NCBI GenBank assembly: GCA_977020255.1
Contig: CDROCS010001038.1
Span: forward strand, 1-64,000
DNA: 64,000 nt
Direction of reading: 5' to 3'
Origin: Obrimoposthia wandeli
Taxonomy: Eukaryota
In this document: positions 40,965 through 63,194 of the stretch, piece by piece
How the letters are laid out: every line of letters begins with the position of its first letter
Numbering within the stretch: position 1 is the first letter of the stretch
Program-made: the position numbers and the translations under genes
The notes under the pieces: generated by a model
Told to the model about the DNA's origin: nothing
Database searches by the model: none
The model's input: the letters and a program-made list of their open reading frames with translations, nothing else

Positions 40965-41095
40965 TCAAAGAATCACCTCAAAGAACCATCTCAAAGAACC
41001 AACTCAAAAAATCACATTTGAAGAACCTTAAAAGAATCATCTCAAAGAACCATCTCAAAGAACAAACTCAAAGAAGCAGTTCAAAGAAGTATATT
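40965..41095. repeat. 13-bp tandem repeat (CTCAAAGAACCAT)n, about 10 degenerate copies
   Basis: Direct reading of the units CTCAAAGAACCAT, CTCAAAGAACCAA, CTCAAAGAAGCAG and similar. Confidence 0.8.
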
Positions 41096-41899: not shown

Positions 41900-42075
41900 T
41901 GAGTCAAAACCTTGACCTCATGATGACCTTGAGCACATGTGCACTATAATAGAACAAAGGATATAAGTCATCGATGACCTACATTTTTAGCTCATGTGAC
42001 CTTGTCCTCACATGATCTTGACTTACTTTTTGACCTTGACCTTACATGACCTAACGAGGTCATGACCTTAACTTG
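41900..42075. promoter_or_regulatory. Cluster of TGACCT (nuclear-receptor half-site-like) motifs
   Basis: At least 7 TGACCT hexamers in about 175 bp, including TGACCTTGA, TGACCTTGACCT and the palindrome AGGTCATGACCT. Function not shown. Confidence 0.4.
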
Positions 42076-42419
42076 TTATCATACTGCCTGAGAGGCTTTG
42101 TTCCAGAAGTGCCACATTCATACTTAAGTGCACTTTAATGACACTCTATAAAGATAGCTGACATGCACATAAGGTTAAACTCCATAATTGATCATTTTGA
42201 ATAAATTTTATATTTTGTGATAACTTTCATTAATTTTGTCTCCCTATTATTACCTTCCTATTTATATAATATGTTCTGCTTTTAATTTATTTTTAATTAC
42301 TGGATAACAAATAGTATGTCAGTAACCTTCAAATATGATGGGATTTCTCCTGCCTGTACTCTACGTATGTATCGATAGTTCTTTCCAGAACTACGTTTAG
42401 GAGAATCGAAGATTGAAAT

Positions 42420-43740
42420 ATCTGAAATAAGTTGTTATTCGAGAATTTAGAAATCGAACACAAATAAATAAAAATTTAGCCATTAATTTATTAAATCAAT
42501 TTTGTATCTCTGGCATTATAATTTTCAATAAAGAAACCTTTTTACGTATACATTTTGCGGGCGCATATTAAAAAATCAAATACCAACTTTGAGTAGAAAA
42601 TCTTTTATTTCTTTAAACTTTCTATCTAACTTTCTAAAACCTTGATTACTCAAATTCAAAATTCAATTACAACTGTACCTTGGCGATGTCCACGCCAACC
42701 ATAATCCATACAATTTGAAAAGATAAAATGACCTTGGTTATTTCATCTTTTCAAACAACCTTTTAATACAAATACTTTTTATTATGTGCGTGGTAGTTAT
42801 ATTTAATAACTAATTACATATATTAAAATAATGATTGGATCCTAAACAAACCTCTTGGCTCCTAGTGGTAGTGAAAGAATACATTTCATATGTAAATTGT
42901 TACAAAATGAATCTATTTTCAATTCCAGTTTCAAAAATATTTATTGGCATCATGGTGTTGGAGACGAACGCGGTTTAACTCAAACAGAAGTTTGCAAGTT
43001 GAAGGGAATAAAATTTATTAAAGGACTTGAAGCCTATTGGTGCAAAAGATTGATTTCTTTTTTAATAATTATTGATAATTTGTATCAGGACGTTAACAAT
43101 GAATCGAACTTTAATAATTTATTTACAAAAATTGAAAAACATCATGAAGTAACAGTTATATTTATCACTCAAAATCTTTTTCACCAAAGAAGTCATCATA
43201 GAACAAGATTAAAAAATTAATTTTCAGTGCATTTTAAGAAGTTGATAGAAAAGCGTAAATGCAAAGTAAAAGCAAAGCCTAAAAGATCGAGAAACAAAAA
43301 CACAAAGAAAAAATAAGTTAATAAAAGAATCAAGTATGTAGGTAAGCAAAAACTGAAATGGCTTTGAATATAAACAATTTTAAACATGATCAAATATATG
43401 TTTTAATTATGAAAGTACAAAGAAGCATATCCTATTTAAAAGCTTTGATCAAAGCTTATCCTGATAAGATAATGAGTATTCTTAAAGCATTTCCATCTTT
43501 TGTTGTAGATGATTTATTAGAAGTTTTGTATAATACAGTTTTGGGTCGAGTAAAAATTTTGAAAACGGAAGAATGTATTAAATAAATATAGAAAAACCTT
43601 TTTAGGTATTGCTAATGTAAAAAGTAAAAAAAAGAAAACGAAACATTATTCTTAAACAGAATGTAGGCTTCATAGGGTCTGTACCACCAGTTGTTGCTTC
43701 AGTTATTAGCAGTATTATAGCTGCGACAGGGACATAAATA
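42420..43740 (+). pseudogene. Decayed Polinton ATPase and small basic protein module
   Basis: APSGSERIHFICKLL..., IIIDNLYQ, IFITQNLF and QRSISYLKALIKA...GFIGSVPPVVAS, homologous to 49624-50765. Confidence 0.8.
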
Positions 43741-45095: not shown

Positions 45096-45582
45096 GATCA
45101 GTTTAATTTTTCAATTTAGATTATATAGAAAGGATTTTATAAACAAATTTGTTTAATGTTTAAAGTTTAGACTAAATGTCATTAAATTGTACCGTGCAAC
45201 AAAAATAAAATTAATTTTGTTTGTGAATAGTGGGATGTGATGACTTGAGAATTGAAATTGGTACCTTGGACATCTGTTTCGATTTTTTGGTGAATATTTT
45301 TGAGTTTTTTTTTAAAAAAGTTGAAAATATCTACTATTCAGATTGATCTTTCAACCCATCATCCCCACTGCCAAGGTAATTGTCAAGGTCATGTTAAGAT
45401 TAAAACTATCTACTCAATTTGAAATTTAAATTAAAATATTCAGCACATTTTCAAAATAATAATTTCATATTTTGTGATATTTTAAAATCAATTTCAAACC
45501 CCTATTTTACAGACTACTTTTTGTCCGCACATATATGCATAAGTTTACAATGTTTCAACAGATACTTATTAAATACACTGTC

Positions 45583-45680
45583 AGTAGGTGGATGTGTCCG
45601 GTCTAATTCACACCCCCTCCCACCCCCCTACTGTCCTTTAAAACCGTGCATGTGTGTGGAGTGAAATTTCGTGTAGGTGT
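45583..45680 (+). repeat. Left terminal inverted repeat of element B
   Basis: About 90-100 bp imperfect inverted match to 62815-62901. Confidence 0.92.
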
Positions 45681-46219
45681 GTGGAGTGAAATTTCGTGTA
45701 TGTGTGTCTCCATTCCACCCAAAGGGGGAAGGAAGGGGGCACCCCCCTACTGTCCTTTAAAACCGAACATGTGTGAGGAGTGAAAATTCGTGTATGTGTG
45801 TCTTCATCCCACCCAAAGGAAGGAGGAAGGGGGTACCCCCTCCCGCACCACACTTTTAAAAAATTTTACCACGAATCTCAAAAGTGGTTAGAGAAGACCA
45901 CGAGAATCCATATTGACCCCGGCGGCTTTTCGCAGACGAGATTTCAAATATTACTACTTTTTTTAAGAAAGATTTTAGATTAATAAATTACTACATGTTA
46001 AATATCTATGTCAGTTTTAGAATTTAGAGGAGAAAAATCGGTCAGATCTATATAATTTAGAGGAGAAAAAAACAAAATACGAGACAAAATTATTTTTCAA
46101 AATATTTATTAATCATAAAACAACATATTGGCTTCACTCAAAGTCCAGAGAGGCTGCATTTTCCAGTCATCAGAAATATCTATTGAGACGTATTGAGATA
46201 TTCCATAGTTCTTCATCTA

Positions 46220-47651
46220 TACCTTTTCAAATTCAATATGGGAATAGTCAAATTCAATATGGGAATAGTCAAATTCATTATGGGAATAGTCAAATTCATT
46301 ATGGGAATAGTAAAAGGCATTATGAAAATTTACAAAGGTATTATAAAAATAAAATTTAGTCCAGCTCAATTTATTAATATAAAAATAAAAATTAGTCCAG
46401 CTCAATTTATTAATATAAAAATAAAAATTAGTCCAGCTCAATTTATTAATAGGTCATGTTGACCATATTCAATGCATCCGGCAGTAATCTTTGAATAGAT
46501 GCAATGAAATTGTTGCAAACAAATGGAGTAATTTCAGCCAAAGCGGCAGAAACAAACCCTTCAAGCTTCTGAAGACGAAACTCGGTTGTTGTAAGAGCTC
46601 CTTGCCCATTTCCTCGTAAAATTCCGGGCATTTCAACGGCTAACCTCCTTTCCACAGATGCTTTAATTTTGAACCAAGCATGCTCTATGGGGTTTAACAT
46701 AGGACTATAAGGCGCCAGCCTTAAAATCACATTTCCCTCAAACTCGGCCTCGCCAAGAACATCCTGTATTCTGGAATGGCAAGGCGCATTGTCAATTACC
46801 AAGACAACCTTGCTTTGGTGTAATTGCATGCCTTTCCTTAAACACACCCTGATCCATTCATTAGCTGCGTCCATCCTGAACGATCCCCTTTTTATCTCAT
46901 GGTGTACCATGCCCAGTGGCCCTATACATCCTATTAGATGTACATTAGCCCCTCTCGACCCACTGGTGACCACTGTACACCTGGTTCCCCTCCTTGATCT
47001 TCCTTCTTTCCTGGAGATGTGAATATTAAAATTCGTTTCATCCATAAAAAGAATTGGAAGGGTACCTGACTGGTGGTTTAAAAGATCAACTGCGAACAGC
47101 CTTCTTTTTTCTTTATTCTCAAGACAATTCTCCCTTTCAGGTTCATAACGTATTGCCTTGAGAGTATAAAGATGTGCGTCAAGGTGTAGACGCACGCATT
47201 CTTTGGTAACTTCCAAATCATACTCACCTCTGAGAAGTGCTGTCAACTCCTCGAGGGAAACCCTGGGATTTTTTTCAATCTCATTTATCATAAATGATTC
47301 ATGAGTTTCAAAAATCTTTTGGACACGAACTCCCCCTCTTGCGTCTTGTACATCACCGGTTTTAATCCACCTATAATAGGTACTGGACTTTACACCTAAT
47401 GTTTCAGCCAAAGCCCTCCAATCCCCGCCGGATGCATAAACTGCAAGGATCTGTGCTCTCTTTTCCTTGGTCTCATCTTTCTTGATTCTAGGATTAGGCA
47501 TTTAAGGGTTTTTTTATATTTTTAATGATTTCTGATTAATAATTTATTTATATTTAAATAATGTTCCCATATTGAATTTGACTATTCCCATATTGAATTT
47601 GACTATTCCCATATTGAATTTGACTATTCCCATATTGAATTTGAAAAGGTA
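46220..47651 (-). mobile_element. Intact IS630-Tc1-mariner transposon, 1432 bp, TA duplication
   Basis: TIRs TACCTTTTCAAATTCAATATGGGAATAGTC at both ends, flanked by TA at 46218-46219 and 47652-47653. 21-bp subterminal repeats at both ends. Confidence 0.95.
46446..47501 (-). CDS. DD35E transposase, 351 aa
   Basis: N-terminal HTH, FMDETNF, VIDNAPCH, PYSPMLNPIE. 35 residues lie between the second D and the E. Uninterrupted ORF. Confidence 0.95.
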   Translation of the reverse strand: MPNPRIKKDETKEKRAQILAVYASGGDWRALAETLGVKSSTYYRWIKTGDVQDARGGVRVQKIFETHESFMINEIEKNPRVSLEELTALLRGEYDLEVTKECVRLHLDAHLYTLKAIRYEPERENCLENKEKRRLFAVDLLNHQSGTLPILFMDETNFNIHISRKEGRSRRGTRCTVVTSGSRGANVHLIGCIGPLGMVHHEIKRGSFRMDAANEWIRVCLRKGMQLHQSKVVLVIDNAPCHSRIQDVLGEAEFEGNVILRLAPYSPMLNPIEHAWFKIKASVERRLAVEMPGILRGNGQGALTTTEFRLQKLEGFVSAALAEITPFVCNNFIASIQRLLPDALNMVNMTY

Positions 47652-48063
47652 TAGAATTGGAGCAATCAAATATCCTAGATCATCTTTAAAATCCAGACCG
47701 GGATCAGTTTCAAGCTGGAAACAATTTCCTTCATATACATAATCAGGAATGTAAAATCCCAAAATATCTTTCAATTGATCAATATCAGTTGTTGTTAAAA
47801 TTTCGATGAGATATTTATTCTGCACTTTTGATATTTTCACAGGATTCATAACTCGTATAATTTGATGCCTCTTTAATATATTACATAGTTTTCCTTTTGA
47901 AATTCTTTCTGGATAATAAAAATTTGCTACACATCTAAGGAAACTGATTAAAAACAATGTTTATAAAAAAATACATATAAGATACAAATAAGATACAAAT
48001 AAAACTGATTATTAAATGAAAGAAACACAGTAAAACCGATTACAATTTATTACACGCAAAAAG

Positions 48064-48540
48064 TTAAAACATAGAAATATGAGCACGTTCAATTTTTCAC
48101 ATAGGCAACTTCGTTCCCATTTCATCTGTCTTGTAACCATAAAGTCGAATTGTTAGAGTCCATTGCTTCTTTTTCGGAAACGCATCAATATCAACATATC
48201 TTCCATAGTCATCTAGAAATGCTTCATCGGCTCCTCGGATATAAAATTCGTTCTTATTGAAAGTAAAATTCGGAACTGCCTTTTCAACTTTCTGTTTAAG
48301 ATATTGAAATTCAGGTTTTTGAATATTTGATAGATAGTAGCTGAACTTTCTTCTTTCAATTGTCACAGGATTTACTAAAGCAATCAGTTGAGCCTTCTTC
48401 AAGAATCTGACTTTGTATTTGAAATATTGTTTCACTTCTTCATACATATCCTTATACGATTCTTCAAATATTTCTTCGTCATCGCTTAATACCCGTAGGC
48501 TATCGTCCATCGTTGATAATTGTCTTTGATATGCATGCAT
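48064..48540 (-). CDS. Unknown Polinton gene B (147-aa ORF; probable true end at 48064 past a TGA in place of Trp)
   Basis: After LPM* the same frame continues KIERAHISMF*. TATAAAAG lies about 35 nt upstream. Aligns with gene A. Confidence 0.65.
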
Positions 48541-48789
48541 TTACTGTGATTTGTCCTCCAATGGCGCATTCTTTTATACTAATTTCTAACAAAGACATGA
48601 ATCTCATTGGTTAATATAACTAAAGCATTGAATTTGATTGGACTAAATCTATATTAAAAATCAAAATTGATTGGAAGAAATATATCATCCAATTATAATA
48701 GGTTTGCAAGATAATTACAAGAAACGTGCAATAAAAAAGCAGGTTCAGACATATATAAAGAAGATTTTACAGAATACAATTTCAGTCTA
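48541..48789. promoter_or_regulatory. Divergent promoter region with a TATA box in each direction and CCAAT boxes
   Basis: Minus-strand TATAAAAG at about 48571-48578; ATTGG at 48606, 48637 and 48670; CCAAT at 48689; plus-strand TATATAAAG at 48752-48760. Confidence 0.55.
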
Positions 48790-49300
48790 ATGAAACTCGT
48801 AAATATAAATTATAAAGGTAGAACAGAAGATGATGTTTCGTACTTACCATTCAATGAATGGAAGCCGAGACAATATGTGGAAAAGTTTGACAATTTTACA
48901 GTTGTTATTTTTCCTACAGGTTAGTTTTTTATTTTCATATTGAATTCTTTTTGGAAATTGTCGTGTTATGGGATGCAAAATACCAATACTTGGGTTCAAT
49001 TTACCATTTGGAATTCGAATCACTGCAATACAATCAATCACAATTTCGGCTAATCTTGGGAAACAGATAAATCTTTTAAAAACTGCAGATAAAATGAAAG
49101 AAGAATGCATGTTTGAACCAGAAATTTTTCCTGCTCTCAGTTATTTGAAGTTTAAACCGCTATGTGTAAATATATTTTCCAGTGGTAAAGTTATGATATT
49201 GGGATTGAAAAATTTTGATTATCCAGACATTGTTGATTTGATTTTAGAAAATATATCTTATTACATCTTGTTATCTTTTTCTATAAACAAACCCGTTTAA
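48790..49300 (+). CDS. TATA-binding-protein (TBP)-like protein, two exons (48790-48919, 48954-49300), about 158 aa
   Basis: Repeat 2: IQSITISANLG..FEPEIFPALSYLKFKPLCVNIFSSGKVMILGLK, compared with TBP [41 protein letters not shown]. Repeat 1: KLVNI..TVVIFPTGNCRVMGCK, joined in frame by a 34-nt GT-starting intron whose acceptor reads TG instead of AG. Confidence 0.85.
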
Positions 49301-49314
49301 ACTTATTGTTTCAA

Positions 49315-49494
49315 ATGAATAATACTATAAATAGAGACAATGAAGTGGATCGTCTCGCCGACGAAATATTTTCTGGAAAAATTAGGGGTAAAGAAATTTT
49401 ATCAGAATTAAAAAATAATGATATAACAAGAGATAACATTGAAATAACATTAGATCACACGTTATTCGAGAATTTAGAAATCGTACACAAATAA
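49315..49494 (+). CDS. Small unknown Polinton ORF (59 aa)
   Basis: MNNTINRDNEVDRLADEIFSGK...LFENLEIVHK. Its 3' end is conserved at about 42430-42465 and 63495-63525. Confidence 0.5.
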   Translation: MNNTINRDNEVDRLADEIFSGKIRGKEILSELKNNDITRDNIEITLDHTLFENLEIVHK

Positions 49495-49623
49495 ATAAAA
49501 TTATAGCCAAATATTCATTAATTAATTTTTGTATTTCATCTACAATAACTCTAACATTGTACATTTCAATAAGGAAACTTCTATGATAATATAAACAATA
49601 TTAAAAATAAAAGAGTATATGCA

Positions 49624-50258
49624 ATGGAGCTAAATAATAATGCTGTATTTCAAATAGTTGGCCCTAGTGGAAGGGGAAAGACACATTTCGTCTGTAAATT
49701 GTTGCAAAATGAATCTCTTTTCAAATATAGTTTCAAAAATATTTATTGGCATCATGGTGGAGGTTAACCAAAACAGAAGTTTGCAAGTTGAAGGGTATAA
49801 AATTTTTTGAAGGATTTGATGCAAATTGGTGTGAAAGATTGAAAAAAGAAGATGTAATAATAATTTATGATTTGTATGAGGAGGCTAACAAGGAATCGGA
49901 CTTTAATAATTTATTTACAAAGATTGCAAGACATCGTGAAGTAACAGTTATATTTATCACTCAAAATCTGTTTCACCAAGGAGGTCACCATAGAACAAGA
50001 AATCTTAATGTACATTACTTAGTTTTATTTAAAAATCCTAGAGATCAAACAGTTGTTGATTATGTGGCCAGACAGGCATTTCCTCAAAATAAGAACTTTC
50101 TAGTTGATTCATTCCACGATGCTGCTAAACAAGCACATGGGTATATATTTATTGACTTTACACAAGCTTGCCCAGATGATTTACGTGTTTTAACAGACAT
50201 ATTTAATTCTAAGGGAGTAACTGTTTATAAACAAATAGAGAACAATTATAAAAAATAA
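49624..50258 (+). pseudogene. FtsK/A32-like packaging ATPase, frameshifted near 49765
   Basis: Walker A GPSGRGKT, IIIYDL, IFITQNLF, RTRNLNVHYLVLFKNPRD. A short deletion relative to the 42855 and 63600 copies shifts the frame. Confidence 0.92.
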
Positions 50259-50389
50259 ATTCGCAATGCCTTTTACAAAGTTGATAGTAAAACGTAAAGT
50301 AAAATCTAAGAAATCAAAAAAAAGAATCATTAAGAAAAAAGAAGTAAAAAAATAATTCAAATCTGTAGTTAGAAATAAAAAAAATTTAA

Positions 50390-50765
50390 ATGGCTTCGAA
50401 TATAAACAATATTTAAATTGAACCTTTTTTATTAAAATGAAAAAAATACAAAGAAGCATACCCTATTTTAAAGCTTTAGTCAAAGCCTCTTCTAATAAGA
50501 GAATGATTATTCTTAAAGCTTTTCCATCTTTTGTTGTAGATGATTTATTGGAAGTTTTGTATAATATAGTTTTGGGTCGAGTAAAAGTTGGAAATCGGAA
50601 AAATATATTAAAGAAATATAGAAAAACTCTTCTAGATATTGCTAATGTAAAAAGTAAAAAAGGAAACGAAATATTATTCTTAAACAAAATGGTGGTTTCA
50701 TAGGGGCTGTTATTCCAGTTGTTGCTTCAATTATCAGTAGTATTATAGCTGCGACACATTCATAA
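50390..50765 (+). pseudogene. Conserved Polinton small basic protein with GGF-hydrophobic tail
   Basis: YFKALVKAS..DDLLEVLYNIVLGRV..LKKYRKTL, then after a frameshift GGFIGAVIPVVASIISSII. Confidence 0.7.
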
Positions 50766-50851
50766 ACAATTATTTCTAAAATCAGCTAAAGATATGGGTG
50801 CTAGCCCTTCTTTACCTAAACTTAAATTTTCTTTCTATTCAAATTGTTGTA

Positions 50852-51701
50852 ATGGAGAAGATATGGTTCAATCCAAAAGATCCAATTGGCTACACAGGAG
50901 TTTCAAAATTAGCAAAAAGAACAAAACAAAATTACAAGAAAACGCAGAAATGGCTGAGCGACCAGTTACCCTACAGTCTGAACAAGCCGATGAGAAGAAG
51001 GTTTCCAAATAGAGCTTACAAAACCAGCGGTCTTAATAATTTATGGCAAATGGATTTGATGGAGATGATCCCATATTCTTCCATTAATAAGGGATATCGA
51101 TATATTTTAACATGTATTGATGTATTTAGCAGGTACAATACAAAGCAGCAGTAGTAGAAAGATTTAATCGTACTCTAAGAGATCGAATAAAAATGTATTT
51201 CACAAAAGAAGGAAATAAAAAATGGATCCAAGTTTTATATAAAATAATACATGCATATAATCACTCTGAACATAGAGGTCTCAAGGGAATGAGACCTGTT
51301 GATGTTACTAATAAAAACTCTATGGACATTTGGATGAACAGGAATAAAAAAGATAAAATTAAAAAAGCTAAATATAAGAAAAACGAATATGTTCGAATTT
51401 CAAAAATTAGCTCTACTCCATTTATTAAAAACTTCGATCAGAATTGGAGCGATGAAATATTTTGTATAAGTAAAATTGATCAAAAGAGTAATCCAATAAT
51501 GTATACTATTAAAGATGCTGACAGTAATATCCTTCACGGTAAATTTTACGAGCAAGAACTACAAGTAATATCAAATAAACTTAGCGTTTTCCGTATTCAA
51601 AAAATATTAAATCTAAGGGTACAGGTAAACATAAACAATACTTTGTTAAATGGCATGGTTATTCAGACCCAACTTGGATATCAGCATCTAATATAATATG
51701 A
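50852..51701 (+). pseudogene. Retroviral-like integrase with C-terminal chromodomain; internal deletion
   Basis: WQMDL, IDVFSRY, AAVVERFNRTL, AYNHSEHR and chromodomain QYFVKWHGYSDPTW. The segment carrying the second catalytic Asp is missing at about 51135. Confidence 0.92.
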
Positions 51702-52760
51702 AGTCTATGTATATGGTTTTACCTAGTAACGGATGTCCGAAGACTCAACCAGATAATTACGCTAGTAGCTTTATTATCGATTGGGAAAATCCTATAAATC
51801 TCCAAGGAGAATGGAAAGCGGCTTTAACCGAATTTTCTTTTTATTATTCTCCAATTACTATCAGAAAAAACTCACATATTTCGTTTACAAAAGAAGTTGA
51901 TCATGAAAAAACAACTAAAGTTGTGATCGGGTTTGATAGTAAAGGAAAATTATTTTACAATTGTATAGATAAAGAAGTGAAAGTAATATATGAAAAAAAC
52001 AAAGTCAGATTTAAAAATCGATCAAAACATTTTCAACCTATTCAAATTATATTCGAATCTGGAAAAGAAGCTCTTCAATTCGGTTTTGATAGTGGACATG
52101 TAGTAGGTATGAAGAGATCTGATATTGTCTCATCTAAAATGTTTAAAAATGTTCCTAGTAGAGTAGTAAGAGTGTTGTTAGTTGAAACGAGACCAAAGAC
52201 TGTAGTGGAACTGAAAATGTTTTCAAAAGATTATAAAATAGATAGTGAAGTGAATTTCTGTAAATTACTACAGAAGGAATGTAGTGAATAATTGGATAAA
52301 TGTGAAACATTAAAAAAATGGTAAAATAACGTTTACAGTAATGAGCAATATAAAACGAGTTTCATTTGATGATAAACTCGCTAAAAACCTTGGTTTAAAC
52401 AGAAATACCTTTGAAACCCATACAATAAAAACCATAAAAGCTAAAAATAAGGCAAAACTTTTAAATGCTGTTAATCATTTATATATTTATACTAATTTAA
52501 TAGAACCAACGCTTGTTGGAGGACAACGAGTTCCACTTTTGAGAACAATATGGATATCTAAAAATGAAACTAAAGATGGTGACGCTGTCGGTATGTGTAT
52601 AGATCAACCAATGTATCTTCCAGTTGCTCTCTTTTCTATAAACAATATTGAAGTAAATATTAGAGATGATTCCGGACAACTCATAGATTTCACGTACGGG
52701 GCCAAGACAAGTTTAACAATACATTTAAGAAAACAAAATGGCGAATCTAGCAATAATTGA
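51698..52760 (+). pseudogene. Minor capsid (penton-like, PX) protein, frameshifted at about 52290-52320
   Basis: MYMVLPSN..PDNYASSF..L.GEWKAALTE and LYIYTNLIEPTLVGG..PLLRTI..IEVNIRDDSGQLIDF..LTIHLRK. Confidence 0.9.
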
Positions 52761-53115
52761 AGCTTATAGTCAAAGCCAACAAGGTGGAGAATTACCATAT
52801 TTTGTTGGCAAACAATATGGATCTGGCTGGCTTAGAACATTAGGTAGATTTGCCTTTCCTCTTTTAAAGAGACTCGGGCGATTTATATCAAAATTAGGAA
52901 AGGATTACCTTTCATCTTAGGACAACAATCTAATACCAACTTTTAAGAAGCATGCGCTTGATGAACTTGATAATGTTTTGCCTGAAGTTGCTAATTTGAT
53001 TAGAAAACGTAAATCAAATAAAGGCCAAGGAGGTAGTGGATTTAAAAGTAAAAAGAAGCTAAAAATTAATATAAACAAACGTAAGAAAGTTGAAGGAACA
53101 ATATTTGCAAAATGA
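52738..53115 (+). pseudogene. Basic core-like Polinton protein, premature TAG at 52918-52920
   Basis: QQGGELPYFVGKQYGSGWLRTLGRFAFPLLK, continuing past the stop to a Lys-rich tail. The element A copy has Lys at the stop position. Confidence 0.7.
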
Positions 53116-54340
53116 GTTGCGCCAAAACCGAATTGTGTATTTTTGATAAACCGCTTCCACAAGTAGTTGTAGATAATGCTTCCTTTGAAGAAATATTCCT
53201 AGTTAACTCAGTTTCAGGAACCACTTTAACCGATTTAGAATTTAATATTAATGGTTCCAATAGCGAGTATTTAGATTTGAATGATACTTTGCTTTATGTT
53301 CAAATAAAAGTATTACATCGGGATGGTACTAATTTAGATGAAAATGCCGATGTAACACCTGTAAATTATCTCTTTAATTCATTATTTAATGATGCCATTG
53401 TTACTCTTAATAATGTCAAAATTGAAGGTGGAAATTCTTCCTATGCTCATAAAGCTTTGATTGAAAGTCTTTTGAATTATAGTACTGATACTCAAAATAC
53501 TAATTTGGCAACCATTGGTTATGATAAAACTGTTGCAACTCGCAAAGAATGGATTGCAGGTTCTAAAGCTTACGAAATGTGTGGGTATTTGAGATTGAAT
53601 TTCTTTGAACAACCGAAATATTTAATTCTCGGTGTTAATGTACACCTTCGTTTGAAACGTAATAAATGGAATTTTTCTTTGATAAGCACAGACGTTCTAA
53701 AACCTAGACTTGATATTTTGGATGCAAAATTGTATGTCCGAAGAGTTAAAACCGAGCAATCAGTTTTAATGGCACATAATATGGGAATGGAAAAAACAAT
53801 GCTTGTTATCCTATTAGAGAAACTAAACTTATATCTTATTCTTTAGGTACGGGTACACAAGCTTTTAATAAGGATCACATTTTTGGTGATGTAAGATTAC
53901 CGAAATTCATTTTAATTTCTTTTCAAAAAACTGCAAAGTTTCTAGGAAATTATACGACAGATGCAACTCAATTTGACAATCTTAGTGTAGGTTCAGTGAC
54001 ACTTTCAAGAAATACTGATTATCGTGAAACATATAAAACAAATTTCGAAGGTAACACTTATGCTTTGGCTTATACCCAATTTATTATTCGTAATTTGGGT
54101 CAACTAGATAAAAATATAAACAATGGTATTTCTTTCACTGAGTTTAAAAGTAGCTGCCCGTTCTTCACATTCGTTTTGGCACCAGACTTTGATATAAACC
54201 AATGCCAACTACCAAATGATGGAAATTTACGACTAGAAATTAAGTTCAATGCAGCTTTAACACATTCTACTACGGTGCTTATTTACGGAGTATTTGATTC
54301 GGAAATACAAATCAATAAAAACAGAACTGTCATATTATAG
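53112..54340 (+). pseudogene. Major capsid protein (double jelly-roll, PY), frameshifted near 53800
   Basis: CAKTELCIFDKP..LEFNI.G..EYLDLNDTLLY..; ILDAKLYVRRV; GNLRLEIKF..L..STTVLIYGVFD..IQINKNR. Confidence 0.92.
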
Positions 54341-54341
54341 A

Positions 54342-54725
54342 ATGGAGTAAGACATATTTTAAAATTATATTTATTAATTTTTATGTAGTTCAAAACAAGT
54401 AAAAGAATCAGCAGACAAGGTCCTGGGTGATAAATTCAATAGAGTTTATCCTATTGATATGATTCCATTTTTTCAATCTGGAGGTTACATTATCAATACC
54501 CATACTTCGAATTTACCAGGAGAACATTGGATAGCTATTTATGTTAGAGAGTGGACAATACATGTATTTGATCCACTTGCAATGTATTATCCACACAAAC
54601 TTGTTTCGACTATTCAAAAAGGACGAAGAAGATTATTTTACAACAAGATACAATATCAGGATCCTGCGACGAGAAACTGTGGACATTTATGTATTTTATG
54701 ATTATCGTTGCAAAACAATTAGTGT
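54342..54725 (+). CDS. Adenain-like cysteine protease, two exons (intron 54347-54388), TGA at 54699-54701 just after the catalytic region
   Basis: MD|SKQVKES..NTHTSNLPGEHWIAI..FDPL..QYQDPATRNCGHLC, giving a His/Asp/Cys triad and the oxyanion Gln. Confidence 0.88.
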
Positions 54726-54981
54726 GTTGTAAAAATAAATATTTTAAATGTTTTATTTTGAATTATTTTTTACATCTCTAAAAATATAAGGGTAAAATAA
54801 TAAAAGACATAAGACAAAATTTTTTAATACATTTATTAATCACAACATCACAATGAGATATGTCAGCAAAGATAAGGTTCATCCTAAAAAATGTATTGAA
54901 ATAACATATAAGTTAGAGTCTAGGTGCCATAGGGATCTAAAATTTTAAAAAACTAAAAAAATCAAATAAAATGAAAACCGT

Positions 54982-57132
54982 TTAAATTCTGAAGTGTCCA
55001 TAAGCCAGGCTAGCGTTCTTTTCTACCCAAAAGCGCTTGTCGTAATTACTACTCAAAGCGATTTTGGTTGATTTATGGGAATACAGTTGATGGGCTCTTG
55101 AAATAAATCTAGTTTGCTCAACGGTTTCAATACACCCAGTATCATAAACTTTCCGGTAGGCCTCATGTGTAAGATTGTTTCTTTTCACACCCTTTGCTCT
55201 CATTGAACATGTATTATTAGATGCATGTAAACTGTAGCATTTAGTGCGTAGGAAAATACAATCATAATACGAAACCTGTCCCTCGCTTTCATCCTTAAAT
55301 TTCCCGATAATGTCTTTTAAACTCATAGAGTGTAGAGGATGGTTAGCGGGATATTTATGGGTATCTAGTAAGTTGTCCCTAAACATTGCTGGTAATAATT
55401 GATTATTTAAACTAACATTCTTACATTCTAAAAAGAAAGAGTCAGTGTCCCCTGCCGCGATTTTGATCTCACAATTAAATTCTTGTCGGTATTTCTCCAA
55501 TTCTATGTATTGAAGCTCATACATTCTGAGTTTAGAAATGTCTAAAACCGTTTGACCTATATAACTCGGTCGATCGAGACAAATACTCTGTTTTCGTAAT
55601 AACACTGCTACCAAGTCATCTGCAATTGTAAAACTACGCTTGAATTTGTACTTGCTAGTATATGTTATTAGTTTACACTCATCATTGCAAAACCGTAGAC
55701 AAATAAGTTTCCGCAAGTCCTCTACAGTTTTTCCAAAGAGACTATTACTTTTTAACTTGTAAAAATCTAGATCGAATTTGCTAGTGGCCAAATTACGTTT
55801 TCTAGAATTCTTCTCAATATAGTCTTTAAACACAAAGTTTTGACTGAAGCTTATAGCACGATGAATTCGAGTAACTTTCGCTCCCAGCTTTAAGTAGAAT
55901 TGAAGAAGCCGCCAATGCACAACATAATTCAACTTGTCTTCATGGGTTAACAATAATTTCTTAACCTTTGAATTAGGTAGGCATTGATGAACAGGCGCTA
56001 CTGGAAGATCATCTAATTTATCATGCACATTGGGAGGGATTTTTATGTCCACCTCAACCAAATAGCTAACGTCGGATGAAACTGTATCAACAGTAGCCAA
56101 ATCTGTCATCAACTTATTCAACTGATCCACATCATAAACCCACTTAAAGTTGGCATGAGGTAGAGGTTGAGTAAGCGCCCACCCATACAAATTATTAATA
56201 TCGATGTACAGAATCTCCGTGGATTGATTTTTGACAACATGATGTTTGTTGACAAAAGTCATTCCACCGCGTATACCATAATCATACATTTGATACATCG
56301 CGGGATCTTGCAGTAACTTGATATTAATTTTAAGAGTTTTTATTGCTGTTGCCCATGAAAGACCAGGTAAACTAAAGAAATGCATGGGATCTAGCCCATC
56401 TTCTGCTAAAGATTTTACACGAAAGGACTCAAAAACATCAGCTAAAAGATAAATGTCTAACTTCATATAATAAAGCATATATTCTAAAAGATTTCGACAA
56501 TTATTTGCCCAAAATGTACGGGCATCATTATAGTCTTGAAGACTTACACCCTCATATTCAGTTATAAGTGGGATTTCAGTTGTATTTTCTAAATCTGCAA
56601 AAGTTTTCGCAAATTTATACGGAAAAATCCCCTTATCGTTAACCGAAGCTGGGAACACTGACTGTGTAATTGGCCTTGCATTTAAAGATGCCATTTTATT
56701 TTTTAAAGAACCACTCAAAAACTGCAGAGAATCTATGAATCTTAAACTGCAGAATTCAGTATATGCAGTTAAAGATAAATATTTCTCTGAAGTTTGAGGT
56801 ATACATGAAATTTCCCAAGAGCTTAATGTACCCAACGCATATTTAAGTATATGATGCAAATCATATCCTTTGAGGTTATGAAACACAATGGGAATTCGTG
56901 GTTTTTTAGGGAGACGACGGCCAAGGTTACAGAGGTTGCACGCCGCTCCTAAGTATCGCCCCGTAACATGATCGTGATCTCTGACTAACTTAGACTGGGT
57001 TCCACACAAATAACATAATCTACTAGAATTAAAATTAACCCAGTTTATGCCTGTCATGATCACTGCTTGATGAGCATTAAGATCATACCACGGTTTGACA
57101 ATTGTTGTTCCTAATTCCTCTAATCTTAACAT
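54982..57132 (-). CDS. Protein-primed family B DNA polymerase, 716-aa uninterrupted C-terminal part
   Basis: Endonuclease VII-like RDHDHVTGRYLGAACNLCNL, exonuclease motifs FHNLKGYD and FIDSL, polymerase motifs YIDINNLYG, KLKSNSLFGK and AGDTDS. Confidence 0.96.
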   Translation of the reverse strand: MLRLEELGTTIVKPWYDLNAHQAVIMTGINWVNFNSSRLCYLCGTQSKLVRDHDHVTGRYLGAACNLCNLGRRLPKKPRIPIVFHNLKGYDLHHILKYALGTLSSWEISCIPQTSEKYLSLTAYTEFCSLRFIDSLQFLSGSLKNKMASLNARPITQSVFPASVNDKGIFPYKFAKTFADLENTTEIPLITEYEGVSLQDYNDARTFWANNCRNLLEYMLYYMKLDIYLLADVFESFRVKSLAEDGLDPMHFFSLPGLSWATAIKTLKINIKLLQDPAMYQMYDYGIRGGMTFVNKHHVVKNQSTEILYIDINNLYGWALTQPLPHANFKWVYDVDQLNKLMTDLATVDTVSSDVSYLVEVDIKIPPNVHDKLDDLPVAPVHQCLPNSKVKKLLLTHEDKLNYVVHWRLLQFYLKLGAKVTRIHRAISFSQNFVFKDYIEKNSRKRNLATSKFDLDFYKLKSNSLFGKTVEDLRKLICLRFCNDECKLITYTSKYKFKRSFTIADDLVAVLLRKQSICLDRPSYIGQTVLDISKLRMYELQYIELEKYRQEFNCEIKIAAGDTDSFFLECKNVSLNNQLLPAMFRDNLLDTHKYPANHPLHSMSLKDIIGKFKDESEGQVSYYDCIFLRTKCYSLHASNNTCSMRAKGVKRNNLTHEAYRKVYDTGCIETVEQTRFISRAHQLYSHKSTKIALSSNYDKRFWVEKNASLAYGHFRI

Positions 57133-58578
57133 AAAATCTAAAATACAATTTGGACCGGAAAATTTATGATACTGTGTAATATTGGGGCCTAAGAATAGTA
57201 GTCCTGCCGAAGCCGGTAGGTGAATACTCTCATACTAGTCGTGCAATGCTAAAATTGACTCAAAATCTGCATACACCCTGTATTCCACGGGTATGCATTT
57301 TGCCCAATCCCTGAATTTTAAATCTTATCCTTAGGCATGCTATATAGCGTATTGTCATCAGGATTCAGTGAACATAATGTCAGATGTTTGCTGTAAGAGA
57401 GCTCGGATCGGAACCCATGCAAACATCTATGACACCACTTACACCTTATCCTAACCGGTAAGGTTCCATTATCTAAATTTAGAAGACGATCTAAATTGGG
57501 AATTGCAGCATAATGGAATTTTTTATTATGTTCGAGCAAAATTAAGTTGACCTGAGTCCCCTCATTTTTGCTCCTATAAATTACATCTACAAAAGGATTT
57601 TTAAAAATTTCTTCGTCTATTACATTAAATGGGATATCAGTATTATATTTGAATACATTAATACTCAAGTTATTAAGATGTTCAAATCTTGATATCGCAG
57701 TTAATTTAACAGGAAAATCTATTCCATGATACTGCAATTCATTTTAAAAAGGGGTATATTTACTGACACGCTCTCTATGCTCAGTAATTACATCCCTTTT
57801 GAGGATGGCCAACACGCTATACAGAAAGCAAAGGTTATCACTGTTTTGTACGTTAACAATGGAACGTGAAAGTTGAAGAGATCTAGGTGAAGGAATGTAT
57901 GAACTCCCCGAAAGATATATCATGTCAGTGAACTTTGTTAGAACAAAGCTAACATCGTGAATTCTAACTAGAGTCCATCCACTACTTAACTCGCTATAAT
58001 TAGCAATTTTTTCATCCAGGTTTCTTCCAATTTCAGTTACAAATTATCATAAAAAACAGTTGCTTTATGTGAAATTACCCAAGTTTTAGTTTCCTCATTG
58101 ACATTTTTAAACTGCACTGTTGCGCAAAATTGAACCTTAGCCTGTCCTAATTTAGTCACTTCTGATTTTTAAAGATTTTCAATATTTGAATCTACACCTA
58201 CGTTTAATAAAATTTCATTTCCTAATGGCACCTTAACTATAATATATTTATTATTTAGGTGATACTCTATAGTAGCACCGTTTTCTCTACATTTTTTTGG
58301 TGGGACCTTATTAAGAAATTGGCCTCGCCTCTTTCTTCCGTTTGTCGCTGACAAACCTCCCCCTAATTGAACGGGAAGACAACTAGTTATATTAATCGCA
58401 GCTGAGGTTGAAGGTGCTGCTATTGGTGATGCTGCCGATGTTGAGGCAACCGTAGCTGATGTTGAAGGGGCTACTGTAGCAGGTGCTGCCGATGTTGATG
58501 AGACAGTGGCAGTTGTAGAGGCTGCATTTGAAGCTGACCTTGCCGATGAAGAAGCGGCTGTTGTAGAGGTTAGTGCTG
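57133..58578 (-). pseudogene. N-terminal part of pPolB (S/T/A linker, LGGG, terminal-protein region), several frameshifts
   Basis: ALTSTTAASS...VQLGGGL..SGWTLVRI..GSSYIP..CFLYSVLA..GIDFP..SINVF..YADF. Confidence 0.85.
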
Positions 58579-58625
58579 CTGAAATAAATATATTAAAAAA
58601 TAAATATATTTTTAAAAATTATTAC

Positions 58626-59244
58626 CTCTAAGGCGTGCTAACATCGATGTAGGCGCTCGCGATGGTGGAGGCATATCTGTTGTAGCAGTTGTTATCGCTC
58701 CACTGAGGCTGCTCCATCTCTAAATCTGACTGGGTGATATTTTCCATCCAGTCATTGTTTGAGAATTGGGTTGCTGGTGCCAACTCCTCAAAATTTTCTT
58801 AGGAGATGTCGTTCATCCACTCATTGTTAGACATTTGAGTGGATGGGGCAGCAGCAGAATCAGGAGCAGGGAGAGAAGGACCAATGGCAGGACCGTAAAA
58901 GGGTTGATCGACTGCAACTGAAATTGGAGGTGGAACTGGAGCGGCCTGCGAATCGCGCACCAATTGCATGATATCCCTCTTCTTGTTGTTGGCCGTGAAA
59001 CACGATAGATGAGCTCGATGTTCACCGAAGAAGTCTCGAAATTCCTTCTCCTCCATTGTTTTTCAGAATGGGCAAACGAAGAAGTGAAGACCGCGAGACT
59101 TTGTCCGATAGTATGCAAACATTGTCTCCATGCAGGTCTCTCCTCCATGCGGAGCCGAAGCACCACAATATGCGGGAAACAGGATACAAGTAATCTGAAA
59201 TAATAAATATTAATAAGGAAATAATAAATATAGATTCTTACCAT
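58626..59244 (-). pseudogene. Spliced leader exons upstream of pPolB (element B)
   Basis: ATG 59244-59242, 47-nt intron 59241-59195, exon 59194-58626, 47-nt intron 58625-58579, all GT-AG. Two premature stops and one frame change. Confidence 0.75.
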
Positions 59245-59345
59245 AGGCAATATTTCAAATTGTCGGGGATTTAAATGAAGAAAGTGTTTGCTTATATACT
59301 AAAATTTATGCACACATGCTCTTTTCCAATTGGATTAAAAAATTG

Positions 59346-59470
59346 AATTTATTCCTCCAATGAGAAGGATTGTTTATCAGTTATTGGTTGAAAAAAAAAT
59401 TTATTCCTCCAATTAAAGAGAAGGATTGTTTATCTGTTATTGGTTGAAAAAATAATTTTATTCCTCCAAT
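59346..59470. repeat. About 55-bp direct repeat (2 full copies and 1 partial) containing CCAAT and ATTGG
   Basis: The unit AATTTATTCCTCCAAT..GAGAAGGATTGTTTATC.GTTATTGGTTGAAAAA is repeated upstream of the leader/pPolB gene. Confidence 0.8.
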
Positions 59471-59516
59471 CAAAAGGCTTATTTGTAAATATTTGTAAAT
59501 AATTCAGTCTTTCACG

Positions 59517-59726
59517 TTAAGATTGGTATATATTGTCAATTCTCCTATGAATATTAAAATTAATTATATTAAATGTAAACATACCTAAATATTTCAAAAT
59601 TAAATTACATATTGTATATCCAATGGTATCCGTACTATCATTTACTGAAAAGTAAATTTTTTTATAATCTTCCATTAAATCTGGAGATAATTTTATGAAT
59701 AATTTATTCCAATTTTTATTATCCAT
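59517..59726 (-). CDS. Small unknown Polinton ORF (69 aa)
   Basis: ATG-initiated ORF between the other minus-strand accessory genes. No recognisable motif. Confidence 0.4.
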   Translation of the reverse strand: MDNKNWNKLFIKLSPDLMEDYKKIYFSVNDSTDTIGYTICNLILKYLGMFTFNIINFNIHRRIDNIYQS

Positions 59727-59810
59727 TTTACAAAAAAACTTTATATTTAAATTTGTTTATATTTAGACAATTTTATAACATAATGAATAAAGACAAAGTA
59801 ATCAATAAAA

Positions 59811-60134
59811 TTAATTTTTTTTTGTGGAAGGACCCTCTTCCGGTTTAATCTGAAGGATTCGCTTTCTTGCTGCTCGTCGAACATCCTCCGTCTCTTCTCT
59901 TCTTTTTTCCTCCACCTTCTTTTTTTCCATTTCGATTTTCTTGTTCCACTCCACGACCCGACGTCGTTCTGCTAGCCGCCTGTCCTGAATCTCCATCCGA
60001 CGATTCCACTCGGTCGCGACAGCAGTATACAAATTCTGGTTGAGGATCCTCTTTCGTAAGTCTCCTTTCTTCTCATTTATTCTTATGTTTGCCTCGATCA
60101 TCGTCACCAAACTTTGCAATTTAATAAATTCCAT
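59811..60134 (-). CDS. Charged coiled-coil-like Polinton protein (107 aa)
   Basis: Intact GC-richer ORF rich in E/K/R, with a TATATATA box about 35 nt upstream. Confidence 0.65.
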   Translation of the reverse strand: MEFIKLQSLVTMIEANIRINEKKGDLRKRILNQNLYTAVATEWNRRMEIQDRRLAERRRVVEWNKKIEMEKKKVEEKRREETEDVRRAARKRILQIKPEEGPSTKKN

Positions 60135-60425
60135 TTTTTAATTATGAATATGTTAATAAATTTGAACCTATATATATATAAATTTAAGATATTTTTAATC
60201 CAATCATAAGCAATTAAAATATATTTATCAAATGAAAGTTTAATAAATATATAACTAATCATTGCATTTATATTTAATGCTAAAAAATTTTAATTATTCC
60301 TTAATAATCCAATCACATTCGAATAAGTTAACTTTATTTTTAATCTTGTTATTTTAATAAACTTAAGGAGGATATTTTAATATTACTAAATTCTAAAATA
60401 AATAATAAAAAGACAACACAAGAAA

Positions 60426-62435
60426 CTAATTTTTGTAAATTATATTTTTAAACATTTTTACGAAGTCATCATTGGGATCATCCGGGTCGTATTCCCTCCG
60501 ACTAAGTATAATTGGAGAAAGCGGTACTGGTTCCTTCTTCTTTGGCCTGCCCGGTTTCTTTTTCGGCTTCACCGGTTGCTGTACAGCATTTGTCCTTCCC
60601 TCAGGTTTTGGCAATAGTTGCCGCAATATTTTGGGAGGAGGTGCAGCCGATGTTGATGGCCCCGACATAGAAGCAGTAGCCTTCCTCTTCCGCGGAGCTT
60701 TCTTCTGTTTCTCCTCCTTCTCACGCTGAAGCTGGCGTGAGACCGCATCCTGTTGCCCACGCGAATCTGGAAGCATTACCGGTGTATCCAGTTCCGCCAG
60801 GAATTCGTCCAAACCAGCGTCATCCCAGGCCCTCTTCAAGTTCTGGCTGGTAGTTGGACGAGGAGAAGCAGTCTCATGCAGACGTGGTTGACTCGAGGGC
60901 GGACTTATCTCGATCGGCGAGACTGGGATCCTCTCGTATAAAATTGGACCGTCGTCCACTGGAGATGGGAGAATCTCCTGCTGGCCAATCACCGCCTCAG
61001 AATAATGGCCAATTGAGGTGCGAATTTTTCTCGAGCGCTTCGTCTTTTTCACCTCTGCCCGCTTTGTCCTTTTCTTAGGGAAAGGAGTAACTTCTCCCCA
61101 AGTCTCCTCAATTATCCGGACAGGTTCCTGCAAATGTAAACATTAATAAAATTTCAAATAAATTTTATTTAATTAAAAAAATATTTAAAATACCAAAAAA
61201 TTACCTCAATACTCATATACGGAAGTTTTTCCTGCCGCTCAATCGTTACTTCGCTCGATTTGAGCAGACAGGATTTCGCCTTTCTAAGACGCCGTGTCTT
61301 CCGTACAGCAGCCCGCCTCGTTCGCTTCTGTGGGAAAGGAGAAATTTTGGCCTATGTCTCCTCAGTTAATTGTATTGGTTCCTGCAACAACAAAAACATT
61401 AATAAAATTTAAACATATAAATAATTTACCTCTATGACGGGCAGATTAGCCTGTTTCACCAACTTGGCCTTCTTCCGATGGACCGTATTGGTTTTGACCC
61501 GGTGGCGTCGAGGTTTCTTAATCGCCGCTTGCTTCCTATCGACGGGTAGTCTCCGAGTTGCCTCCTCCCAAATTTCCTCCACCAATTCAGCTTCCTATTT
61601 GAATAATTAAATAAATTTACTAATTTATAATAAAATACCTCAAATTTAGCCGGAATCGGTAGGTAACGCTGATCACTCCTGGGATCATCCTGGCTACATT
61701 GACTCGCCAAGTACTGCGGTTCAATTAGACTCTCAATCGTGGTCACTGACGGTGCCAAATCCAGTTGCAGTTTCTGAAAATAAAATTAAAAAACATTTTA
61801 AATAAATGATGTCTAACCTCATTCGTCGCCTTTATTCTCCTAACAGGACGTATCGGAGATTGTGGTCTTCTGAATGGATCAGGCACTGCATTGTCGGGTA
61901 TTGGAGTCGGAGTTGTAGAGGGAGTGAGACCATCCCATTCGTCGGTGAACAGATGCCACTCATCTTAATCCAATTCTGCAACCATGGACTCGTTGGCTCC
62001 TGGGACTCCGATACTTGGCTGTATCCATTCCTCCCCATCCGACGAAAAGTCATCAGTAAACCGCTCCTCGTCTGAGTATGGTGCCAGTATTATCTCCGGT
62101 TGAGACAGCAGGATCAATTTCCAGGGGCATTTGATTGCCGCCTCAAAATTGTCGAAGAGATTGGATCTCCTTGCTGCTACTGCTGAAGTTGCCGGACGAT
62201 TGGCTTCTGTGTTCAGCCTGGGAGTACAGTCTTCCCAATTCTCTATCGAATCCTGACTAGTCAGATCGATATATTGGGATCTCTGTACCCCACCTCGTAC
62301 GCTCATTGGTTCTTCTCTTGGAGTTGAGCTGGCCAATGGTGCTTCTTCTTGTAACAGCTCCGCTCTTGCTGCTGCTTCTCCTTCGTCTCCTTAGCTCACC
62401 ACCGACGAGTCTTGACTAAGTAAGTCAATGTACAT
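60426..62435 (-). pseudogene. Five-exon, about 598-codon disordered Polinton protein, 3 premature stops, no frameshift
   Basis: Exons 62435-61818, 61773-61639, 61594-61430, 61381-61205 and 61127-60426, all multiples of 3. Four GT-AG introns (44, 44, 48, 77 nt), each after GAG. Confidence 0.85.
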
Positions 62436-62814
62436 TTAAGGTCATGATGACTAATTTGATGATTCACCAAATAAAAATGAAAATTATTTCGAATTTATGT
62501 AGTTGATTATTTAAAATCTTTTGCGACCCTATATATGTATCTTTCTTATAAATTCTTATAAAGAAAATTTTTTTTACGACCTTGTATATATGTATGGATA
62601 TAAATTTTCTCGCGTATAATTTTTCGCGAGCCTGTATGTATTACTCGTTGATCCACTGCGGGCCCGGAGGGCACGCTTTGGCCAAATTTACGGCCTCTCA
62701 GGACCTTAATCAAAATTTTGGGAGCATTATGAGATTTTTAAATTTAAAGGGTGTTATATGGAGTTAATTTTTTTTGAGTGTTTGGGAGGGGGGGTGTAGA
62801 ACATTTTTCTACAA

Positions 62815-62901
62815 ACCTGCACGAAATTTCACTCCACACACATGCACGGTTTTAAAGGACAGTAAGGGGGGTGTGGATTAGACCGGACACATCCACCTAC
62901 T
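62815..62901 (-). repeat. Right terminal inverted repeat of element B
   Basis: Reverse complement reads AGTAGGTGGATGTGTCCGGTCTAATCCACACCCCCC..CTGTCCTTTAAAACCGTGCATGTGTGTGGAGTGAAATTTCGTG. Confidence 0.92.
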
Positions 62902-63194
62902 ACTGTCAACAAAAACCGAAAAAAAGAATCTAATCTGCGGACTTTCTTTAATGTTGTCTTTAAACTAGACGCTGGTCACCTATGAGACCCGATGTTGATA
63001 TGGTTATGGATAGACACAGGTCGAGATTTATGACTGCTGACTCAGATTTACAAGGTCCATAGAGAGTGCGGTTCTTTTAACATGAGAAGATAATTCAGTG
63101 TATGTAGCTCCACAAATATGATAGGGCTCAGTGGGACCCATTCAAAACGTTTAAGTTCCATGACAGTTTTATTCTCTTTGTGAAATTAGCGAGT

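Follow-up and report, generated by a model that had tools for sequence, protein, structure and literature searches.

How Polintons (also called Mavericks) begin to express their genes and how they escape silencing are open questions, and the core genes described for these elements are replicative or structural. A 64,000-nucleotide stretch of the genome of Obrimoposthia wandeli (GenBank assembly GCA_977020255.1, contig CDROCS010001038.1, positions 1 to 64,000; hereafter the window) contains a 17.3-kb Polinton at 45583-62901, and within it an interrupted reading frame on the minus strand (60426..62435). Is this a genuine gene, and what might its product do for the element? Comparison of its copies shows that the gene is real and under selection, and that it is very likely spliced. 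As the best explanation of its function, which we hold to be about evenly poised between right and wrong, this terminal gene would encode an E1A-like, disordered nuclear early hub that binds SUMO under the control of DNA damage kinases. A fixed and selected terminal gene with two cores resembling SUMO-interaction motifs (SIMs), SQ sites and an amphipathic helix is a concrete candidate for an early regulator, and introns of 38-48 nt can conceal such genes from annotation based on open reading frames (ORFs).

The window holds a decayed copy of a probably spliced gene

The gene frame amounts to 598 codons and a stop. Four GT-AG introns, all of phase 0 and each directly preceded by GAG, are present in the letters of the window exactly where the sequence-only reading of this DNA had placed them, at 61817-61774, 61638-61595, 61429-61382 and 61204-61128, and the GC content is 9-17% in the introns and 47-53% in the exons. 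The surviving part of exon 1 (61818..62433), the 5' part of which is deleted, contains both SIM-like motifs, four SQ sites and an acidic-aromatic patch, and its net ratio of nonsynonymous to synonymous divergence (net dN/dS) is 0.17-0.27. It is followed by intron 1 (61774..61817, 44 nt), exon 2 with two SQ sites (61639..61773), intron 2 (61595..61638, 44 nt), the basic exon 3 (61430..61594), intron 3 (61382..61429, 48 nt), exon 4 (61205..61381), intron 4 (61128..61204, 77 nt) and exon 5 (60426..61127), which spans 233 codons and the stop and is predicted to form four isolated helices and no globular fold.

The single frame of about 598 codons proposed earlier has the right length, but it is not open and does not start at the ATG at 62435. 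Three in-frame stops interrupt the window copy, TAA at 62391..62393, TAA at 61965..61967 and, in exon 4, TAG at 61352-61354, and these positions are sense codons in 18/18, 18/18 and 16/18, respectively, of the other copies of the same subfamily (family A). When 20 other copies were compared, each with 10 kb of context, the match to the window was found to end at 62433 in most of them and to resume farther upstream. In the 14 of the 20 in which both anchors could be located, 535-749 additional bases are present at the deletion junction (62433..62434). Judged by the other copies, the deletion took away a TATA-like box together with the true start and about 33 codons, and the junction itself created the ATG at 62435. 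The window copy is a pseudogene, because the three stops are mostly sense codons elsewhere and its start codon comes from a deletion junction. Functional copies would encode about 631 aa, and the search for intact family members that had been proposed as a check does find fully open copies, in 2 of 9 assessable cases in family A, 4 of 16 in B and 0 of 4 in C. Three points had been overlooked: that the copy is a pseudogene, that the Polinton hosting it has a very high copy number, and that the SIM-like cores are surrounded by conserved SQ sites.

Exon-intron structure and selection in four subfamilies

Besides family A, three subfamilies (B, C and D) were recovered from divergent matches. The alignment comprises the window copy and near-complete copies at 18 of 29 loci in A, 20 of 30 in B and 15 of 20 in each of C and D; these loci are the best matches and not a random sample, and copies with large deletions or insertions are excluded from the alignment. 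The exon DNA of the four subfamilies is 67-88% identical. Introns 1-3 occupy identical sites in all of them, and the GT donor of intron 1 is present in 19/19 A, 20/20 B, 14/15 C and 14/14 D copies, with similar figures for the other introns. Intron lengths vary freely between A, B, C and D (modal lengths of 44/44/46/39 nt for intron 1, 44/38/44/39 nt for intron 2 and 47/41/43/43 nt for intron 3), exon 2 is constant at a modal 135 nt, and exon 3 varies by whole codons (165/147/165/150 nt). Exon 4 is a duplicate of the beginning of exon 5, at 73% over 112 bases. It is absent from B and D, and intron 4 occurs in A and C only; the five-exon description is therefore valid for A and C, whereas B and D have four exons.

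The exons behave as coding sequence. Of the 29 exon indels present in half or more of the copies of a subfamily, 26 are multiples of three; two of the others offset one another, and the third reflects a shift of the alignment at an acceptor. Of the indels confined to a single copy, 56 of 186 are multiples of three. Pairwise net dN/dS is 0.27 (0.19-0.37) for A-B, 0.28 for A-C and 0.23 (0.17-0.29) for A-D, as opposed to 0.9-2.1 in the two shifted frames, and it stays below 1 in each exon, least clearly in exon 2 (0.40-0.72). CpG mutation was considered as a source of these low values and ruled out, as the ratio is 0.26-0.36 after removal of CpG codons. The introns have the features of spliceosomal ones, namely GT-AG ends that are kept, a size like that of the host's introns (36-40 nt in the SUMO gene and 42 nt in an array of ubiquitin-like domains of O. 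wandeli) and an exon frame preserved across divergent copies.

It is extremely improbable that decayed repeat DNA happens by chance to read as these introns or this frame. Selection is specific to the gene frame overall, with a net dN/dS below 1 in every exon, triplet indels prevail among shared as opposed to single-copy events, and an intron of the same size in the two-exon TBP-like gene that the element also carries (48790..49300, plus strand) is validated by colinearity with uninterrupted homologs. Two observations speak for chance and against a spliced gene: two junction probes yielded 0 and 0 matches to intron-less DNA copies, and substitution divergence is not higher in intron DNA than in exon DNA (A-D, 0.674 vs 0.665). 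Four sequencing runs of unstated kind, covering exon 5 only, behave as genomic DNA of many copies and therefore give no information on splicing. On the comparisons above, the exon-intron structure is judged to be beyond chance, because purifying selection operates in the gene frame only and the junctions are kept in four subfamilies.

Tandem SIM-like motifs flanked by SQ sites

All motifs quoted in the sequence-only reading are present in the window, and the SIM-like ones, on whose conservation in homologous elements that reading had staked its case, are kept under selection in all subfamilies. Motif 1, YIDLLSQDS (62406..62432, minus strand), belongs to the top 1% of windows by conservation, and motif 2, SQYIDLTSQDS (62247..62279, minus strand), which has SQ on both sides, to the top 8%. 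The core [YFVIL][IV]DL is found in 15/16 A, 16/19 B, 8/8 C and 12/15 D copies for motif 1 and in 16/18, 19/20, 7/11 and 9/15 copies for motif 2, and both IDL cores survive in D despite in-frame deletions that shorten the spacer between them. The SQ right behind the core is kept in 17/17, 19/19, 8/9 and 13/15 copies for motif 1 and in 18/18, 20/20, 11/11 and 12/15 for motif 2 in A-D. The PIAS-type SIM core, in which two hydrophobic residues precede D-L-T with a Ser or acidic flank, is matched by YIDLT of motif 2 in A-C. Between the two motifs, family A carries VRGG (62289-62300), which we take to resemble the Gly-Gly sites cut by Ulp1/adenain proteases; RGG occurs in B and some C copies, and neither is found in D.

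S/T-Q is the consensus site of the kinases ATM and ATR, and the O. wandeli genome carries both SUMO and an ATR homolog (5e-54). The product contains eight SQ, whereas shuffling exon by exon gives 2.5 (P 0.0015 for one among 12 tested patterns), and SQ ranks first in enrichment and second in conservation among 54 dipeptides, while QS occurs once. The five SQ outside the SIM repeats have a mean conservation of 0.86 vs 0.69, Q within SQ differs in conservation from the remaining Q (P 0.0003), and the other genes of the element have 1 SQ in 2,043 aa. An S/T-Q cluster is defined as at least 3 sites within 50 residues (strict) or 100 residues (loose) (PMC3564818), and strict clusters are seen in 1/18 A, 8/20 B and 11/13 D copies. 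The conserved SQ sites flanking the SIM-like cores point to a predicted control of the ATM/ATR type. A complex prediction of motif 1 with the SUMO exon (64 aa, without the last strand, no alignment) scored 0.09 and is not used as evidence.

Disorder, charge and other motifs

The product is likely to be a disordered, basic nuclear protein, as also expected from the earlier reading. Single-sequence AlphaFold2 models, which are weak without an alignment, give no globular fold for exon 1 (predicted template modelling score, pTM, 0.13) and show exon 5 as four isolated helices (pTM 0.18), and 82% of 51-residue windows are classified as unfolded by charge and hydropathy. The N-terminal half is acidic and the C-terminal half basic, with Lys/Arg-rich stretches in exons 3-5 and a net charge near zero. 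By cross-family identity, the most conserved parts include the first 8 residues of the amphipathic segment SQNLKRAW...LAELD (60786..60848, minus strand; top 0.5%), PWKLILLSQPE (top 3% of windows) and SPVDDGPILYERIP (top 5%).

Other features proposed earlier proved to be less distinctive. Acidic-aromatic stretches such as DEWHLFTDEWDG (61929..61964, minus strand) are present, but they are only moderately conserved: 28-30% of windows of the same length are equally or more conserved than the two patches. The SP/TP sites number 14 vs 8.6, a mild enrichment (P 0.03), and show no special conservation (0.69 vs a protein average of 0.69). AT-hooks typically have a GRP core with basic flanks, and their central RGR, which enters the minor groove, is important (PMC11354804). 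The basic motif KKKPGRPKKK (60534..60563, minus strand; top 11%) has the core and the flanks, but Pro instead of Arg precedes Gly in all four subfamilies and there is no AT_hook Pfam match at E 10, a weak test with such a short model; the motif is a candidate nuclear localization signal or nucleic-acid-binding site. Its GRP core is kept in 14/18 A, 19/20 B and 7/15 C copies and has decayed in D, where 30 loci gave 15 readable copies and Gly in 5 of them. An apparent replacement of this glycine by Asp in D (3/4 copies) was dropped, as the 15 readable of the 30 loci display mixed decay with Gly as the commonest residue. A motif scan of the exons of the window copy found no RGRP, LxCxE, CxxC or consensus SUMO-acceptor lysine.

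A candidate early hub and its alternatives

Counted from the right end of the element, no gene precedes this one, which lies about 0.6-1.0 kb inside the terminus, and the element end lies just upstream of it in 18/20 family-A copies. In a sample of 28 donor sites that were not picked by similarity (listed places on contigs C2-C11), the exact element end is found 1.1-2.0 kb upstream of 17 and downstream of none. A TATA-like box precedes the ATG by about 40-60 bases in all four subfamilies. The immediate-early-type placing suggested by the sequence-only reading is consistent with this terminal position and with a TBP-like gene of similar copy number in the same element.

In the mechanism that we favor, the gene would be expressed first, from a TATA promoter read by the host about 1 kb inside the terminus, and the product would be imported into the nucleus through its basic stretches. 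Free linear element ends or integration may trigger a damage response, which would be sensed via ATM/ATR-type phosphorylation of the SQ sites, and the negative charge of the phosphates beside the SIM cores would strengthen binding to SUMO or the SUMO machinery. In this way, factors of silencing or repair that carry SUMO could be diverted from the element, the short amphipathic and acidic helices may recruit further host factors, and the element DNA would be kept transcribed and replicating. A bolder generalization is that an immediate-early gene of the E1A type can be part of animal Polintons, where tiny introns hide it from ORF searches, and that its product couples ATM/ATR signalling to SUMO binding via SQ-gated tandem SIMs. 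One lineage, which also has a viral TBP-like gene at the opposite end of the element, would have passed 7,000 copies in an animal genome with the help of this anti-silencing hub switched by DNA damage; we regard the whole idea as rather unlikely.

Several points weigh against the SUMO-binding hub. A canonical DLT ending is found only in motif 2 of A-C, and the fifth residue is variable. The eight SQ sites are not independent, because three of them share one internal repeat, and family A has an S/T-Q cluster by the loose definition only (3 within 55 residues, in 16/18 copies), which applies to a quarter of yeast proteins (PMC3564818). The binding partner may differ from SUMO, because the IDLT motif of E1A binds Ubc9 and not SUMO. 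The motif contrast is limited, because all four subfamilies come from one genome at the exon identity given above. Furthermore, no homolog of known function was found, and no homolog at all outside the O. wandeli genome: exon 5 gave 0 hits among 1,938 longer candidate proteins and 0 among 1.84 billion representatives, exon 1 of another copy gave 0/583 among proteins of near length and 0/596 among stretches of metagenome contigs, Pfam and PHROGs returned one sub-threshold match (exon 3), and the best ESM Atlas match scored 0.77 and is unnamed. A single viral-contig match was rejected as a chance antisense match within an unrelated gene. The literature searched gave no SIM- or SQ-cluster-bearing protein of a Polinton, with Repbase and supplements (including the gene maps of PMC8502044) outside the scope of the search, and the portions covered of PMC4495600, PMC11161782, PMC11071296 and PMC11512509 do not describe such a gene.

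Three other functions have to be weighed. The product could be a dedicated activator of the element's genes that partners with the TBP-like protein, its acidic-aromatic helices contacting TBP or Mediator and its GRP motif holding AT-rich promoters. The two genes share the element at similar copy numbers (7,209 and 7,805 exact probe matches), TBP-like genes stand among Polinton core genes elsewhere, and an acidic N-terminal half followed by a basic C-terminal half with predicted amphipathic helices would suit an activator. On the other hand, the acidic patches do not rank with the best-conserved parts, RGRP and an AT-hook Pfam match are absent, and the terminal gene was found on 0/24 contigs with a TBP-like gene, although these contigs (up to 7.2 kb) are too short to reach the far end. 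We consider this activator unlikely as the primary function; it is compatible with the SUMO-binding hub, and co-occurrence is its sole direct support.

A host-derived cargo gene located by the terminal repeat and acting on the host, for instance as a selfish or stress gene, would explain the GC-rich exons and the host-type introns near the terminus, which resemble the cargo regions of 10.1101/2022.07.12.499685, and the intron sizes are like those of host genes (36-42 nt). Cargo genes are of host origin and patchily present among elements; this gene is fixed at one place in all four subfamilies at a synonymous divergence of up to 0.98, no catalytic domain or cellular homolog was found, and the TBP-like gene of the element is likewise spliced. 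On balance we consider a cargo gene improbable, although an element-free paralog may lie beyond the 150 matches of highest score. We give a similarly poor chance to a virion-core protein, basic and unfolded, that would condense the genome, be cut by the Ulp1-like protease and use its SIM-like motifs only after entry. The gene is grouped with the polymerase, at a distance from the capsid genes and in the opposite orientation to them, and splicing and an own TATA box suit an early gene better; the Lys/Arg-rich stretches and the VRGG of family A, as a putative protease site, would fit a core protein, but the net charge is near zero and the GG site is missing in D.

Comparison with known systems

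The hub proposed here has a close functional counterpart in adenovirus E1A, which is the first gene from the terminus of a linear, protein-primed dsDNA genome, is spliced and encodes a disordered phosphoprotein hub (PMC5030357). E1A is the first gene to be transcribed, and its Ubc9-binding motif, EVIDLT (PMC5030357), makes an IDLT-type motif tied to the SUMO system a common trait. In contrast, no sequence similarity to E1A was found, LxCxE and CxxC are lacking, the product is about 631 aa long compared with 243/289 in E1A, and it has two tandem IDL motifs flanked by SQ. By analogy, the gene product would work like E1A and would not be a member of the E1A family. The Oncoid genes of adintoviruses are similar in being motif-defined, non-homologous accessory genes upstream of the B-family polymerase in an animal Polinton (PMC8502044). 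They are defined by LxCxE/CK2, CR1-like and CxxC motifs, of which LxCxE and CxxC are absent here (CR1 being outside the scan), and the portion covered of PMC8502044 mentions no SIMs, SQ clusters or splicing. Of the traits common to E1A and Oncoids, the gene has the position, upstream of the polymerase or terminal, and the disorder, but neither LxCxE nor paired CxxC.

Multi-SIM proteins, to which RNF4 belongs, provide another comparison. In PIAS, PML and Daxx, a hydrophobic IDL core is likewise followed by Ser and acidic residues, and SIMs occur in tandem (PMC4276917, PMC9071424). The SIM of PIAS2 reads VDVIDLTIESS (PMC9071424), and SUMO binding is tuned by phosphorylation adjacent to the SIM in PML, Daxx and PIAS1 (PMC4276917). 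The flanking sites of those proteins are mainly of the CK2 type, whereas the SQ sites here are of the ATM/ATR/DNA-PK type; moreover, the Polinton product has no detected RING or other domain and its gene resides on a mobile element.

Among mobile elements, the nematode Maverick cargo genes wasp and krma are also GC-rich, contain introns and lie by the terminal repeat (10.1101/2022.07.12.499685). They are described as exchangeable enzymes with ubiquitin-like domains, unlike the fixed, fold-less gene of the four subfamilies. Introners are present in dinoflagellate elements (PMC12166617); introns in Polintons are not new as such, because these and the nematode cargo genes are known. Vertebrate Mavericks share the terminal repeats, a 6-bp target duplication, two gene blocks, purifying selection and mostly decayed copies (PMC8097293). 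They are reported to be intronless and to reach at most 287 copies per genome (PMC8097293), as opposed to spliced genes and more than 7,000 exact probe matches here, figures obtained by different counting methods.

The host Polinton and its TBP-like gene

The left terminal inverted repeat (45583..45685, plus strand) is 86% identical to the right one (62808..62901, minus strand) over 103 bases, and a 6-bp target duplication, ACTGTC, is found on each side (45577-45582 and 62902-62907). Candidates for the packaging ATPase, integrase, minor and major capsid proteins and the Ulp1-like protease are located at 49731..54701 on the plus strand and are all broken here. Their profile matches are weak, with rve and DJR-like hits below the cut-off and a weak Peptidase_C48 hit; Pox_A32 is matched on metagenome contig L209, where the core genes follow in identical order. 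Downstream of the terminal gene and on the same minus strand, 54982..57234 contains what we take, by its polymerase motifs, to be a protein-primed B-family polymerase with an endonuclease-VII-like insert; the profile match covers endonuclease VII only, and no PDB match was found. The element accordingly has both the terminal repeats with target duplication and the core gene set of a Polinton, the core matches being weak and the polymerase identified by its motifs.

An exact probe for the first donor site has 7,805 matches in the genome (control 7), one for the donor of the TBP-like gene 7,209 (control 1) and one for the element end 22,309 (control 0), the last counting both ends and mini-elements. 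In Trichomonas, 388 Polinton polymerase copies are reported (PMC10748475); the element family is far more abundant than this and the vertebrate numbers, with counting methods that differ.

The TBP-like gene has a GT-AG intron of 35-40 nt in 19/20 other copies, the removal of which makes it colinear with the uninterrupted homologs. Its product of about 154 aa, encoded by two exons in more than 7,000 copies, is recognized by Pfam (4e-12) and by PDB TBPs down to 6e-13. Relatives with 36-63% identity were found at 24 loci in metagenome contigs, and no match to the TBP-like alignment was found in viral contigs; TBP-like genes have been noted in MELD viruses (PMC8502044). The gene marks a wider Polinton clade, because some of the metagenome relatives (on contigs L202, L209 and L213) adjoin the Polinton ATPase, integrase and capsid genes.

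Further observations

Pairs of inverted element ends about 180 bases apart were seen at C1:72187-72369, C3:194845-195027, C4:429239-429415 and other places; they are likely mini-Polintons of two termini, resembling miniature inverted-repeat transposable elements and apparently common. In the window, a second deletion of about 600 bases at 59499-59502, relative to other family-A copies, removes most of one gene, the translation of which presumably belongs to a DEDD-type nuclease; a related sequence is located at 30738-31282. A second, partial Polinton begins at 30160, as seen by comparing 30160-43600 with 54671-57651, and its polymerase stretches at 33157-34878 and 34858-35819, unlike their flanks, show 100% complementarity to the polymerase stretches of the main element, as a result of either recent conversion or an assembly artefact. 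The main element is interrupted by an open 351-aa Tc1/DDE_3 transposase at 46446-47501.

Elsewhere in the window, a host gene exon at 2376-3105 encodes an Ets domain (Pfam 1.5e-9), and a 20-bp unit occurs 26 times in tandem at 18822-19345. In the O. wandeli genome, arrays of 270-bp units occur on many contigs (among them C2050, C1456, C4682 and C1351), and each unit, as read at locus L256, consists of a divergent ubiquitin-like domain and a 42-nt intron. Three further loci (L259, L260 and L261) carry near-identical frames of 270-330 aa that end in a FATC motif and encode no kinase domain in the same frame, and a PDB search with two of the three returned one weak match only.

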